A stretch of DNA of 57,895 nucleotides from an uncultured Candidatus Saccharibacteria bacterium (GTDB lineage Bacteria; Patescibacteriota; Minisyncoccia; Phycocordibacterales; DSPV01), in contig CAYGFK010000005.1 in NCBI GenBank assembly GCA_964349135.1, forward strand, positions 1 through 57,895, in the 5' to 3' direction. Shown here in pieces: positions 29,819 through 53,663 of this stretch. Within the stretch, counting starts at the first letter, position 1. Every line of letters begins with the position of its first letter. A program made the position numbers and the translations under genes. The notes under the pieces were generated by a model. That model made no database searches and was not told the origin of the DNA. It saw nothing but the letters and a program-made list of their open reading frames with translations.

Positions 29819-29927
29819 ATGATTATTGCGATTATCATTGAGCCGCAGAGCGGTGGAGGTCTTACTTGTGTCTAAATAAAACGAACGTTTTGATACAAGC
29901 CAGCTCTCCACCGAGAGCTGGCTTTTC
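29819..29927 (+). promoter_or_regulatory. Putative Ile-responsive transcription attenuator (leader peptide MIIAIIIEPQSGGGLTCV + antiterminator + terminator)
   Basis: Leader ORF 29819-29875 has 5 Ile codons among codons 2-7. CGGTGGAG (29851-29858) is complementary to CTCCACCG (29906-29913) in the terminator AGCCAGCTCTC-cacc-GAGAGCTGGCT-TTT. Confidence 0.7.
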
Positions 29928-29977
29928 TTCCGAGAACGGAAGGTATTAGTTCTTTACCATAAGAGAAAGGATGCAGT

Positions 29978-49354: not shown

Positions 49355-49750
49355 ATGCATGTAGCATCAATTCTACCGAGTTATGTCATGTGGCATTACT
49401 CGATTGCGTTTCGGGATATTACCCGAGTGTGGACGAATTTTCTCTGGTTTTTCTTTAACTTTTTTTCGCTTGGCCTGCTTGCCAAATCACTCTTTGCACC
49501 ATGGCGTCGGATACGAGAGGAGAAGGGGCGAGGTTTCAGTATCGAGAGAATTGCTGAAGCAATCGTTACCAATACCGTCATGCGTCTGGTTGGTTTTGTG
49601 ATGCGTCTCGTTATACTCATTATCGGTACAGCCGTCTTTCTTATCGTATTTTGGGTAGGGATGGTCTTTTACCTGGTCTGGGCGCTTTATCCGGTAGTCA
49701 CGGTCGTTTCATTCGTGTACGGATTATCAACACTGACCGGACTTGTATGA
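49355..49750 (+). CDS. Small membrane protein translationally coupled to the Clp-like ATPase
   Basis: Stop overlaps the ATG at 49747 (ATGA). Has hydrophobic C-terminal segments. Confidence 0.75.
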   Translation: MHVASILPSYVMWHYSIAFRDITRVWTNFLWFFFNFFSLGLLAKSLFAPWRRIREEKGRGFSIERIAEAIVTNTVMRLVGFVMRLVILIIGTAVFLIVFWVGMVFYLVWALYPVVTVVSFVYGLSTLTGLV

Positions 49751-52254
49751 CCTTGTTCGATATTGAAAATCAGTCGAAGAGGTTTTATCCGGTGCTGGCG
49801 CTCGATACATTTTTCTCACGTTCACTCAGGGCTCATCTCATTAAGATTTTATTAGTCGTGCTCGCGTTCTCTGGTGCCGTTACGATACTTGCGTGCATTC
49901 CGTATATCTATACTCTTTTAATAACGTACGCATCGGGATTTGAAGACATACTCGCTCTTTTTGAAGGCACATTTTTTATCGTGCTCGCGTTCTTTCTTCC
50001 ACTATTTTCGATTCATACATTCTCGAACTCTCTTTATTACAGCGGGTTTGATAAGGTACTTACCGAGCACACGGAGAAAGGAAAGAGTCGGGTGTCGTTT
50101 TCAGTCGCCGCACTTTGCTTTGGCATGGATGCGCAAGACGTGACAAGGAGCTTTCTTCAGTTTTCGTACGGACATTTGATTTTGACTCGTGCAGGACTTG
50201 AACCCAATGAAATTGAACTCTTTCTTAAGAATCGGGCTTCGCCATTGCCCGCAGAGAAATTACTCATCGACCTATCTCGAGAAGAAGGGGTGGTGCATCT
50301 CTCGGATATTGCGCTTGCGATTTTCCATCAGGATAAAGAGTTTTCCGATTTTCTTTTTCATCGCGGTATCCAGGAGAAAAATTTTGCTGATGCCTCGCTT
50401 TGGGTGGCGCGTGATATTGCTCGGTTTAAGAAATATTCAAGATGGTGGTCTCGCGACCGGCTCGGTCGTGTTGAAGGCATTGCGAAAGATTGGTCGTACG
50501 GTACCGCATTTCGGCTCAGACGCTACTCGATTGAATTGACCGCGCTTGAATTCGCCCCACTTTCTACCAAACCAAAATATATTCAGGATGATGTTGAGCG
50601 TCTTGAGGCGACGCTTGCACGGACGCGCGTGGCGAACGCGATGCTTGTTGGTGTAACGGGGGGGAGCCGGAACGATGTGCTACGAGGTTTTTCATCTTTG
50701 GTGCAGGAAGGAAAAGCATTTCCCTCACTTGAGCATAAGAAGATTTACCTATTCGATTCGCAACGTCTTATATCGGAAGCGGGCAATAAGGCGAAACTTG
50801 AATCCGAGTTTACCAAACTTCTTGATGAAGCACTTGATGCACAGAATGTCATTATCGTTATCGACGAATTTGCGAGTTTTATTGAAAGTGCAACGAAAGT
50901 TGGGGTGAGTGTTGAGAGTATCCTGACACCGTATCTAAGAAGTCCGAAAATCCAGTTTATCTGTTTATCGAACCCTGAGATGTATCACCAGTATATCGAA
51001 CCAAATGCCGGACTTAAGGAACATTTTGAGACCGTGCTTTTAAAGGAGGGAGAGGACCTCGACATCATTCAGACTCTCCAAGATGAAGCGTCAACTCTTG
51101 AGGCTCAGCTTGGCGTTATCATTCCGCAGTCGACACTTACGCTCGTTGCGGAAAGTGCGGACCGTTATATTGTCGATGGCATTATGCCCGATAAGGCGAT
51201 AAGTCTTTTACATGAAGTGGCGACAAAATCTGCTCAAGAAAAACGGCCGCATGTTGGCAGGGGAGAAGTGCTCGCACTTATTCGGACGAAAACGGGTATT
51301 CCAACCGGCGCCGTGTCGGACGAAGAGCGAGATAAACTTATGAAGCTTGAAGAAGTCTTGCATCAGCGGGTTATTGGTCAAGACGAAGCCATTATGGCAA
51401 TTGCTGGTGCGATGCGACGGGCGCGCGCCGGAGTAACCAATCCGAATCGTCCAATCGGTTCTTTTCTCTTTATGGGTCCAACGGGTGTCGGAAAGACTGA
51501 AACGACGAAAGCGCTTGCTGAGGCATTCTTCGGCGATGAAGATAAAATTCTTCGTTTTGATATGTCAGAGTACAAGGCACATGATGCACTTTCGAAACTT
51601 ATCGGCGCGTTCGGGTCAAGTGCGCCCGGCGTGTTGACCACGATGCTCCGTGAGAAGCCGTATGGAGTTCTGCTCCTTGATGAGTTTGAGAAGACAACTA
51701 AAGATGTGATGGACCTCTTTCTGCAGATTCTTGATGAGGGGATGTTTGCGGATATGCGCGGAAAGAAAGTGAATGCTCGCAACCTTATTATTATTGCCAC
51801 CTCAAACGCGGGAAGCGACCTCATTTATGCAACCGTAAAACAAGGAGAAAATCTTGCCGCGAAGAAAGATACAATTATTGATTCAGTCATTGCACAAGGC
51901 GTGTTTAAACCCGAGCTCATGAACCGATTCGACGGTGTTATTCTCTTTCAACCTATCGATGATGTTCGACTTCGCGAGATTGCCAAACTCATGCTGGAGC
52001 GTTTCCGTTCCCGTCTCAAGTCACGAAGTATAGATTTGGTGGTGACCGATGAACTCATCAACTTTCTTATGCGGTATGGTGCCGACCCAAAATTTGGTGC
52101 GCGTCCGATGAATCGAGCCATTCAAGATGTTGTTGAACAAATTATTGCAGACAAGATTATTAAGGGCGAAGTTGGGCAAGGGCAGAAAATTGAGCTTACG
52201 AAAGATGATTTAGCTCGGAAGAGCTTGACACCACCGCCACCTGTGGTAGGATAG
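49747..52254 (+). CDS. Membrane-anchored Clp/Hsp100-like AAA+ ATPase (first AAA module degenerate)
   Basis: Two N-terminal TMs. Module 1 has GVTGGSRN in place of Walker A. Module 2 is intact ([32 protein letters not shown]). Confidence 0.88.
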   Translation: MTLFDIENQSKRFYPVLALDTFFSRSLRAHLIKILLVVLAFSGAVTILACIPYIYTLLITYASGFEDILALFEGTFFIVLAFFLPLFSIHTFSNSLYYSGFDKVLTEHTEKGKSRVSFSVAALCFGMDAQDVTRSFLQFSYGHLILTRAGLEPNEIELFLKNRASPLPAEKLLIDLSREEGVVHLSDIALAIFHQDKEFSDFLFHRGIQEKNFADASLWVARDIARFKKYSRWWSRDRLGRVEGIAKDWSYGTAFRLRRYSIELTALEFAPLSTKPKYIQDDVERLEATLARTRVANAMLVGVTGGSRNDVLRGFSSLVQEGKAFPSLEHKKIYLFDSQRLISEAGNKAKLESEFTKLLDEALDAQNVIIVIDEFASFIESATKVGVSVESILTPYLRSPKIQFICLSNPEMYHQYIEPNAGLKEHFETVLLKEGEDLDIIQTLQDEASTLEAQLGVIIPQSTLTLVAESADRYIVDGIMPDKAISLLHEVATKSAQEKRPHVGRGEVLALIRTKTGIPTGAVSDEERDKLMKLEEVLHQRVIGQDEAIMAIAGAMRRARAGVTNPNRPIGSFLFMGPTGVGKTETTKALAEAFFGDEDKILRFDMSEYKAHDALSKLIGAFGSSAPGVLTTMLREKPYGVLLLDEFEKTTKDVMDLFLQILDEGMFADMRGKKVNARNLIIIATSNAGSDLIYATVKQGENLAAKKDTIIDSVIAQGVFKPELMNRFDGVILFQPIDDVRLREIAKLMLERFRSRLKSRSIDLVVTDELINFLMRYGADPKFGARPMNRAIQDVVEQIIADKIIKGEVGQGQKIELTKDDLARKSLTPPPPVVG

Positions 52255-52265
52255 GGGCCGACAAT

Positions 52266-52376
52266 ATGCATAGACAGTGGTTTAATTTTTTCTTTTTTGC
52301 AGACTCTCGTTGAGAGCCAGTTTTTGTTGTTAAATCGATTGACACCATAAACGGACTCTCAACAGAGTCCGTTTTT
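52266..52376 (+). promoter_or_regulatory. Putative Phe/Trp-responsive transcription attenuator (leader MHRQWFNFFFFADSR)
   Basis: Leader ORF 52266-52313. GTTGAGAG (52309-52316) is complementary to CTCTCAAC (52356-52363) in the terminator AAACGGACTCT-caac-AGAGTCCGTTT-TT. Upstream promoter TTGACA (52225-52230), 16 bp, TGnTAGGAT. Confidence 0.8.
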
Positions 52377-52428
52377 AGTTCTTTCACAAGGTGTATGTCT
52401 AGTCAAACCCTCAACAATAGGAGAACCT

Positions 52429-53586
52429 ATGGTAGTTACAATGGAACCAGGAGTGCCCGCAAATGGCGAATCAGTCGCGGCTGTGGTGAGAAAAGCTCAA
52501 GAATACGGTCTTAACCCGGATGTAAAGACCGAAAAAGGTAAGAAGTACGTACTGACCCAAGTATTCTTACGTGATGGCTCGAAGACGTTAAGCGCCTCTG
52601 TCCCGGAACATATTTTCCGTGGATTGCCGGACGTGAATGCGGTCGTTCGAGTGACGCCACCTCGGGTCAGTGTATTCCACCGAGGAAACGGCGACCATCA
52701 TAAGGTCGATGTCGGTGGCGGTATGATTGGCACCGGACTTCCATGTTTGCTCGTTGCCGGACCATGCACGGTCGATACAAACATAAACGCCATTGCAGAA
52801 GGTCTTGCTAAGCAAGGTATTCGTCGATTGCGTGGTGGATGTTGGAAGCCTCGTTCGTCGCCATATTCATTTCCCGGTTTTGGGGAGAAATCGGTCCAGT
52901 GGCTACTCCGTGCCGCTAAGGAACACAACATGTCATCAGTATTTACTGAGGTAATGGAGTCGTCGCATATCGATGTTATCCGTCGCATCAAGCGAAAGGT
53001 CCGATACCATGGAACCGTAGTGCTGTGGGTTGGTGCTCGGACGGCGAATCCGATTCTATTGCGTGCCCTTGGTGCGCAATTAGAATTTCCGGTTATGGTG
53101 AAGAATTCACTCGACGCACTGGGTGTGGACGACCTCTTCGAGCGTGCAGAATGGGTACTTTCGGGAAATATTACGTGGGGAGAGAATGGTGACCTTGACC
53201 CAAAACGAAGTCTCCGTTCCGCCAATCACCACGTCATTTTGTGCCTTCGTGGTACAAGACAAACCGATAGGCGAAGTCCGTGGCGGTTTAATCCGAATCA
53301 TCACTGGACGGAACTTGTCCAGAGTCAGTCGTGGGCGCCAGTTGCCATCGACCCGTCGCACAGCGCAGGCAATCGCGACTTAGTGTATCGCAACATAAAG
53401 ACGGCATTGTCGTTTAGTCCGTCACTCTTGATTGTCGAAGGGGGATATCCTGCTAAAGGATTCCCCGGTCCTTATGGACAAGGATTTTGCGACGTCTCTC
53501 AAATGGTACCCGCTGAGCATATGTGCCATGTATCCGAATTGGTGACGGCACATAATGTTGAGAAGTATCGTAAGGAAACGTTCTGA
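52429..53586 (+). CDS. aroF: DAHP synthase, type I-beta, with N-terminal ACT-like regulatory domain (divergent)
   Basis: N-terminal ferredoxin-like domain, VAGPC, RGGCWKPRSSPYSF.G, VGAR, DPSHSAG, VEG and CD (four candidate metal ligands C/H/E/D). Confidence 0.82.
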   Translation: MVVTMEPGVPANGESVAAVVRKAQEYGLNPDVKTEKGKKYVLTQVFLRDGSKTLSASVPEHIFRGLPDVNAVVRVTPPRVSVFHRGNGDHHKVDVGGGMIGTGLPCLLVAGPCTVDTNINAIAEGLAKQGIRRLRGGCWKPRSSPYSFPGFGEKSVQWLLRAAKEHNMSSVFTEVMESSHIDVIRRIKRKVRYHGTVVLWVGARTANPILLRALGAQLEFPVMVKNSLDALGVDDLFERAEWVLSGNITWGENGDLDPKRSLRSANHHVILCLRGTRQTDRRSPWRFNPNHHWTELVQSQSWAPVAIDPSHSAGNRDLVYRNIKTALSFSPSLLIVEGGYPAKGFPGPYGQGFCDVSQMVPAEHMCHVSELVTAHNVEKYRKETF

Positions 53587-53596
53587 ACACATACAC

Positions 53597-53635
53597 AGCC
53601 GCCCGTTGCGCACGCAACGAGGCGGCTTTTCTTTT
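53597..53635 (+). terminator. Intrinsic terminator
   Basis: AGCCGCC-CGTTGC..GCAACG-AGGCGGCT followed by a T-tract. Confidence 0.8.
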
Positions 53636-53663
53636 AACCAAACGCTTGGTATCGTTCCTTTGT

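Follow-up and report, generated by a model that had tools for sequence, protein, structure and literature searches.

Why would a bacterium with a genome of only 711 kb keep a gene for 3-deoxy-D-arabino-heptulosonate 7-phosphate (DAHP) synthase directly behind a short, phenylalanine-rich open reading frame (ORF) and a terminator hairpin? The question is raised by positions 52266–52428 of contig CAYGFK010000005.1 (GenBank assembly GCA_964349135.1), from an uncultured Candidatus Saccharibacteria bacterium of the Candidate Phyla Radiation (CPR, Patescibacteria). Positions 1–57,895 of this contig were analysed; this whole stretch of 57,895 nucleotides (nt) is referred to as the window, and the parts of the element and the two genes beside it lie on its forward strand. 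An earlier note, made from the letters alone, had placed here a promoter over the end of a Clp gene, a 15-codon leader, a set of pairing segments and a terminator, and had read them as an attenuator of the pheL/trpL type. All of these features were found where the note had put them, and its reading is supported by conserved leaders, by compensatory changes in both competing helices and by folds computed for successive ribosome positions. The element is very probably a functioning transcription attenuator of the ribosome-mediated (leader-peptide) kind, which ties expression of the DAHP synthase gene to the supply of charged tRNA-Phe, with presumably lesser contributions from Trp and, in relatives, from Tyr. 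It offers covariation-supported evidence for coupled transcription-translation attenuation that senses charged tRNA in the CPR/Patescibacteria, a group whose gene regulation is little known.

The leader ORF, MHRQWFNFFFFADSR (52266–52313), begins with the ATG at 52266, ends with the TGA at 52311–52313 and has 15 codons, five for Phe and one for Trp. Its regulatory codons are the Trp codon at 52278–52280, a Phe codon at 52281–52283 and four consecutive Phe codons at 52287–52298. The genes clp, DAHP synthase, dus and dnaX are all full-length under translation table 11, so TGA is a stop codon in this organism. Upstream of the leader, a sigma-70-like promoter (52225–52252; 10 of 12 matches) with the layout TTGACA (52225–52230)-16 nt-TG-TAGGAT (52247–52252) overlaps the last codons and the stop (52252–52254) of the ClpB/ClpA-like AAA+ gene clp (49651–52254). 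The leader ATG has no Shine-Dalgarno sequence, and a −10-like hexamer ends about 6–13 nt before it in the window and in its relatives, where the upstream hexamer reads TTGAC(A/T/C); a very short 5′ untranslated region (UTR) that lacks a Shine-Dalgarno sequence would be implied. Segment 1, GACTCTC (52302–52308), can form a weak local hairpin with 52312–52318 (GAGAG at 52312–52316). Segment 2, GUUGAGAGCC-A-GUUU (52309–52323), is the 5′ strand of the antiterminator, as supported by folds and by covariation (columns 130–144 of alignment A2, and alignment A3), and begins two bases 5′ of the leader stop codon. Within it, GTTGAGAGCC (52309–52318) is complementary to GG-A-CTCTCAAC (52353–52363), of which CTCTCAAC occupies 52356–52363 in segment 3. 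Segment 3, AAACGGACUCU-CAAC (52349–52363), comprises the 5′ arm and loop of the terminator and can pair with either segment 2 or segment 4. The intrinsic terminator itself (52349–52376; −15.4 kcal/mol), likewise supported by covariation, has an 11-bp stem, the loop CAAC and the tract UUUUU. It reads AAACGGACTCT-CAAC-AGAGTCCGTTT at 52349–52374, and its run of five T ends at 52376.

The folding of this region sets it apart from chance. The 181-nt region gives a folding z of −3.1, with none of 200 shuffles folding as well, and its minimum-energy structure is the long helix of 52309–52323 with 52349–52363, not the terminator. Shuffling of the 40 nt that precede the terminator left it in place in 1000 of 1000 folds; the native strand replaces it completely. 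A census of the whole 711-kb genome recovered 5871 ATG-initiated ORFs of 10–45 amino acids (aa), among which 33 have at least five aromatic residues in a stretch of eight and four have at least six. MHRQWFNFFFFADSR has six in its best eight-residue stretch, and it alone of the 33 also has a terminator within 110 nt. Folds were then computed for the RNA outside a ribosome set at successive codons, its footprint taken as reaching +12 or +15 nt beyond the A site, sizes that are general knowledge. An A site on any codon from F6 to F11 lets the antiterminator form in the free RNA when the footprint is +12 (−22.9 to −32.7 kcal/mol); an A site on the stop codon hides segment 2, and the fold is then the terminator (−18.7 kcal/mol). 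The earlier note had proposed folding both conformations. When segment 2 is free, the antiterminator at −22.9 kcal/mol outcompetes the best structure that keeps the terminator, at −18.7 kcal/mol. Among 15 related leader loci with a detected terminator, the terminator is lost from the minimum-energy fold with a ribosome at the first aromatic codon in 11 and stays intact with a ribosome at the stop in 14. Judged by these models, a geometry in which the antiterminator is blocked by a ribosome at the stop codon and left free by one at the regulatory codons is probably present both in the window and at the related loci.

The mechanism suggested by these parts would run as follows. Transcription would begin a few nucleotides upstream of the leader ATG or arrive by read-through from clp. 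With ample aromatic aminoacyl-tRNAs, the translating ribosome would reach the UGA at 52311 and cover segment 2; the terminator would then form and the transcript would end at the U tract. If Phe-tRNA were scarce, the ribosome would stall on the W-F-N-FFFF codons (52278–52298) and leave segment 2 free to pair with the 5′ arm and loop of the terminator in a 14-bp antiterminator, and RNA polymerase would enter the DAHP synthase gene. Stalling, the coupling of ribosome and polymerase, and a matching response in vivo would all belong to this scheme.

Comparison among relatives shows compensatory changes in both of the main helices. In alignments of 11 leaders (A2) and 14 leaders (A3), 95.9–96.8% of cells in the terminator helix are paired, with changes on both sides in 6–8 of 11 pairs, and the antiterminator helix has 90.1–92.2% of cells paired and both-side changes in 9 of its 13–14 pairs. 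For neither helix did any of 500 column shuffles match the observed pairing or covariation score, and sliding the partner strand by 1–3 columns lowered pairing to 17–63% in both. The same-genus genome G005 illustrates the coupling: its segment 2 is GCCCAGAGCC instead of GUUGAGAGCC, its terminator loop is GGGC instead of CAAC, and the GCCC-GGGC pairing is preserved. The bases of the terminator loop covary with segment 2, and only the antiterminator can explain this.

The leaders are conserved as well. Promoter, Phe-rich leader and switch are kept after clp in all four same-genus genomes (G001, G002, G004 and G005), whose Clp and Dus proteins are 59–68% identical to those of the window and whose leaders read MNQKFFSFYFFFWDSR, MVRQNVSFYFFFFEDSR, MQQKFYNFFSFFWTPNSRVDF and MNRKFFSFHFFFWGLPPRADSCC. 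The switch and leader are also found at loci with no preceding clp; in L006, for instance, they follow pheA, and in L015 a tRNA gene. Across 41 leaders, every one has an ATG-initiated frame with a run of Phe, Tyr or Trp (F/Y/W) codons, and their densest 10-residue stretches together hold 182 Phe, 47 Tyr and 26 Trp; Tyr is present in 38 of the 41 and Trp in 27. By their codon content, the leaders appear to sense all three aromatic amino acids and not Phe and Trp alone, as the earlier note had it, a mixture that suits an enzyme common to the three.

Known attenuators offer close parallels to this layout. A permissive Rfam scan of 51800–52800 (E up to 10) returned Phe_leader (RF01859) as its best match, at 20.7 bits and E = 1.1 against a threshold of 55, and no T-box or riboswitch match. 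Membership in a curated Rfam family was rejected, since Phe_leader is sub-threshold and the other two matches are spurious microRNAs. The Phe_leader match spans the full length of the model, and the E. coli pheL-pheA attenuator of that family likewise has a Phe-dominated leader of some 15 codons, with antiterminator and terminator as alternative helices downstream of it. It differs in that pheL regulates chorismate mutase/prephenate dehydratase instead of DAHP synthase, whereas the element described here has no conserved 1:2 hairpin, has no Shine-Dalgarno sequence and mixes Trp and Tyr codons into the run. As in E. coli trpL, the position of the ribosome would select a 2:3 antiterminator or a 3:4 terminator, and the stop codon adjoins segment 2. 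The closest precedent is aroR-aroF of Corynebacterium glutamicum, where, according to the accounts available, a Phe-Tyr-Phe leader lies upstream of a DAHP synthase gene, Phe limitation raises read-through, and leader peptides need no ribosome-binding site for their translation (Neshat et al., 2014, as described in PMC11802643; Mentz et al., 2013, PMC4046766). The likeness to that system, as far as it is described there, is drawn from layout, an aromatic-codon leader before a DAHP synthase gene. Among the differences, C. glutamicum has a complete shikimate pathway, the CPR leaders have 5–9 aromatic codons, and their family precedes two types of DAHP synthase as well as small ORFs. Our literature search found no report tying CPR, Patescibacteria or Saccharibacteria to attenuation, leader peptides or DAHP synthase. 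The element represents a new RNA family with a known mechanism, the first documented for CPR so far as the literature we found extends.

The regulated gene (52429–53586), preceded by the Shine-Dalgarno sequence AGGAG at 52419–52423, encodes a protein of 385 aa with a DAHP_synth_1 domain (PF00793; 89.6 bits). It aligns over residues 1–337 with the DAHP synthase of Thermotoga maritima, including the N-terminal ferredoxin-like regulatory domain of that enzyme, and C113, K140, R142, H311, E337 and D355, which are metal- and phosphoenolpyruvate (PEP)-binding residues, are invariant across 38 subfamily members. The protein shares with the type I-beta enzyme of T. maritima (PDB 1RZM, 1VR6 and 4GRS) the residues of the GPC, KPRS and DPSH motifs, the Glu at 337 and the Asp at 355, and differs from it by an insertion of about 20 residues; it belongs to a separate subfamily. 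It does not reach the NCBIfam cut-offs for 3-deoxy-7-phosphoheptulonate synthase (148.9 versus 335 bits for NF006421; 125 versus 268 bits for TIGR01361). About 70 protein clusters are 37–63% identical to it, the nearest canonical enzymes are about 30% identical, and the subfamily is found almost solely in CPR/Patescibacteria assemblies. These comparisons point to a divergent type I-beta subfamily. Elsewhere in CPR its commonest neighbour is prephenate dehydratase, at times fused to a prephenate dehydrogenase domain (L002/L006:1854–2669, L011:689–2221 and ten further loci).

How widely the attenuator occurs was assessed with a covariance model, R1. Matches at E ≤ 1e-3, with E-values that are rough owing to a shortened calibration, were obtained in 59 of 401 genomes of the order (~15%), about 30 of them strong and full-length (57–114 bits); a search of 400 other genomes drawn evenly across the phylum gave no match. 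The F/Y/W leaders of other CPR orders (L004, L006, L010, L013, L015 and L095) are thus either too divergent for the model or independently arisen. Of 20 R1 matches that were fetched, 18 have an F/Y/W leader, and the genes behind the 20 are an I-alpha DAHP synthase in six, an I-beta DAHP synthase in four and short ORFs of 71–114 aa in ten. For the I-beta subfamily elsewhere in CPR, 33 distinct loci had upstream sequence of sufficient length, and an F/Y/W short ORF and a terminator were found at 19 of them. At most of the leaderless I-beta loci another gene immediately precedes the synthase gene, in many cases one for prephenate dehydratase. Conserved ORFs of about 290 aa with no Pfam match also lie directly upstream of the synthase at leaderless loci (L017:1594–2469 and seven more; L085:291–1142 and two more) and are candidate partners of the I-beta enzyme.

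The cargo behind the leader varies among close relatives. The order clp, leader, DAHP synthase is also found in G001, G004, G020 and G026 of the same order. In other families of the order, G020 and G026 have clp, leader and an I-alpha DAHP synthase, and G040 has a leader and an I-alpha synthase. In the four same-genus genomes, clp and dus lie on the same strand with a variable 0.6–3.7 kb between them and the switch at its start; the leader is followed by a type I-alpha (AroG-like) DAHP synthase gene in two and by an ORF of 77–85 aa in the other two. A search with the I-beta protein, which had 0 homologues in 60 relatives, had suggested a lone, horizontally acquired gene. That picture proved misleading and was overturned by a Pfam-based search and by synteny: in the relatives, the same leader is followed by the I-alpha type or by other cargo. 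The element precedes an I-beta DAHP synthase, an I-alpha DAHP synthase or small ORFs in different relatives. Compared with L168–L171, the clp-dus interval of the window (52255–53645) is a variable slot in the genus, with cargo that differs from species to species. In G001 the slot contains a Trp_repressor-family gene divergent from the leader (L168:1356–1778) and a 292-aa ORF without Pfam matches. The small ORFs include a family of proteins of 77–97 aa with the motif ...G.KV.L...F..G.G..YP.G..G... and no Pfam match, encoded behind an aromatic attenuator where DAHP synthase is lacking (L171:3748–4002, L170:2437–2667 and the ORFs that follow the leaders of L221 and L232); this family has no homologue in the window's own genome.

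What, then, is the regulated enzyme for? The role of DAHP synthase as the first step of aromatic amino acid synthesis does not fit the genomic context. The organism's own genome (G000), estimated to be 100% complete, was searched for 3-dehydroquinate (DHQ) synthase (PF01761), chorismate synthase (PF01264) and prephenate dehydratase (PF00800), and none was found, the other four shikimate steps not being part of the search; 11–14 of 14 control genomes were positive. The description of the DAHP synthase as an orphan rests on these three enzymes, which we could not find. Other genomes show a similar pattern: none of 15 further genomes with an I-beta subfamily member has a chorismate synthase, and a DHQ synthase match was found in just 3 of 31 other CPR genomes with a DAHP synthase, leaving 28 without. 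In other CPR the first and last steps of the pathway appear to be kept without the middle, with prephenate dehydratase commonly beside the synthase and no chorismate synthase in those 15 genomes. Genomes of 0.6–1.2 Mb that keep DAHP synthase under aromatic control, most of them with no detected DHQ synthase to consume its product, pose a puzzle. Since two distantly related types of DAHP synthase stand behind the same attenuator, we conclude from these sequences that DAHP synthesis itself, under the control of aromatic amino acids, is probably the selected function. A rather unlikely scenario is that the enzyme serves no shikimate pathway of the bacterium itself, none having been found, and that a symbiont starved of aromatic amino acids makes DAHP as an intermediate handed over to its host or partner, or feeds it into a non-canonical route, with the attenuator acting as the starvation sensor that drives the exchange. 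If handed over, DAHP would bypass the feedback-controlled first step of the host, which would make more Phe, Tyr and Trp for uptake by the symbiont. Cultivated Saccharibacteria live on Actinobacteria, so a host origin of the attenuator-synthase module is conceivable. In cultivated Saccharibacteria-host pairs, the metabolites made, their recipient and the starvation signal become testable.

One further conserved feature follows the switch. Directly 3′ of the U tract lies a conserved AGTTCTTTC motif (52377–52385), and (A/T)AGTTCTTTGAA occurs 0–60 nt after the U tract in the window and in L213–L232 and L168–L171, in most cases preceded by another small GC-rich hairpin whose sequence varies. The AGTTCTTT motif is conserved after the terminator and specific to these attenuators. 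Three explanations of the motif were considered. A general feature of terminators does not fit, as AGTTCTTTC is rare after the other T runs of the genome. For a general element that sequesters the Shine-Dalgarno sequence, pairing was found in the window, L218 and L219 and none in L216 and L232. A TrpR-type operator is not supported: a Trp_repressor-family gene adjoins the element in G001, but G000 has no such gene.

Several observations weigh against a ribosome-operated attenuator. The classical 1:2 hairpin is worth only −4.7 kcal/mol in the window, has 59% of its cells paired versus 54% in shuffles and shows both-side changes in three of six pairs, which is not above controls. It is not conserved across the family and is common only to the window and its two nearest relatives, so that of the three mutually exclusive pairings originally proposed, 2:3 and 3:4 are borne out by covariation and 1:2 is not. 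In E. coli trp this hairpin pauses the polymerase and gives termination without translation, as a feature of the classical layout and not of the whole class. With a 1:2 hairpin this weak, an untranslated leader transcript of the present element would, on modelled energy alone, read through, in contrast to trpL, where it would terminate. With the +15-nt footprint, a ribosome at the last Phe codon already overlaps the start of segment 2. The scheme would also need a leader without a Shine-Dalgarno sequence, and with only ~6 nt of 5′ UTR from the predicted promoter, to be translated, as may be expected by analogy with the leader peptides of Corynebacterium that likewise lack one; no pathway downstream of the regulated enzyme is apparent in G000; and the rough E-values of R1 count on the same side. 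In distant members of the family the leader frame runs on for 5–9 codons through segment 2, so that the translating ribosome would itself be the anti-antiterminator. Given the weakness and poor conservation of the 1:2 hairpin, the conserved core of the family would be a switch of two helices, with the ribosome itself blocking the antiterminator.

Could the same sequence be explained without an attenuator? The hairpin might be a plain intrinsic terminator of clp, with the Phe-rich ORF and the complementary strand there by chance. Its start 95 nt after the clp stop fits a gene that needs a terminator, and the promoter scan is by itself not significant (4 sites versus 1.9 expected). Yet leader and switch also stand at the non-clp loci after pheA and tRNA, none of the 1000 shuffled upstream strands disrupts the terminator, the ORF-plus-terminator combination is the single one in the genome, and chance is contradicted by the covariation of the antiterminator; we regard this explanation as very improbable. 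The terminator may additionally stop read-through from clp, which is compatible with attenuation. Somewhat less remote, and still quite improbable, is a real switch run by a protein, by uncharged tRNA in the manner of a T-box or by a small ligand, with the ORF incidental or secondary. The extra conserved AGTTCTTT motif after the terminator, the Trp_repressor-family gene beside the element in one relative and the unconserved 1:2 hairpin would all suit such a switch. It leaves unexplained that in 41 of 41 leaders the sole conserved coding feature is the F/Y/W run 10–25 nt upstream of segment 2, and that the position of the stop codon shifts while the RNA pairing stays. No T-box or riboswitch was matched, the best Rfam match being Phe_leader, and G000 lacks a TrpR-like gene.

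A third possibility gives the small ORF a functional, hydrophobic product, for instance a toxin or membrane peptide, with the RNA structures only ending its transcript. The peptides are indeed aromatic, hydrophobic and conserved as ORFs, but they range from 15 to 44 aa, exchange F, Y and W freely and end anywhere from inside segment 2 to 5–9 codons past it; their C-terminal halves are not conserved as protein and follow the RNA pairing. As the element also always stands directly before a gene that points the same way, in most cases one for a DAHP synthase, we give a peptide function almost no credence. Lastly, the absence from G000 of the three searched enzymes and the loss, in two same-genus relatives, of the DAHP synthase behind the leader would fit an inherited relic, intact in sequence and without physiological use now that the pathway is gone. 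Against this, the leader, the helices and the synthase ORF, with its invariant metal/PEP residues, remain intact and evolve by compensatory change in many genomes of 0.6–1.2 Mb; such small genomes shed unused DNA, and the relatives without the synthase keep the attenuator before a conserved small ORF. A relic is, in our view, extremely improbable, and a working leader-peptide attenuator remains the preferred reading of the locus.

The genome also holds two siblings of the Phe element whose leaders are not aromatic. One lies in the window at 29819–29955, where an Ile-rich leader, MIIAIIIEPQSGGGLTCV, is followed by AGCGGTGGAG, complementary to CTCCACCG in the terminator CCAGCTCTC-CACC-GAGAGCTGG; the TAGTTCTTT motif after this terminator (29947–29955) ties the Ile element to the Phe element. 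The other, a second R1 match of the genome, lies outside the window on contig C6 (8882–9205; 45 bits, E 6e-7) and has the same segment-2/terminator backbone as the Phe element, TTCGAGAGCTGATTTTTG ... AAACGAGCTCTCGAAAAGAGCTCGTTTT, with the non-aromatic leader MTYMITKKLSSVVVAIDALFES. It is followed by ATAGTTCATC, a Shine-Dalgarno sequence, a 42-aa acidic ORF (MQDRITEAEDAEV...) and another terminator. The Clp-like protein encoded upstream of the Phe element has 867 aa and scores far below the ClpB/ClpA equivalog cut-offs (409 versus 1232 bits). Pfam finds just its second AAA module, lid and D2-small domain, and its first nucleotide-binding domain looks divergent.

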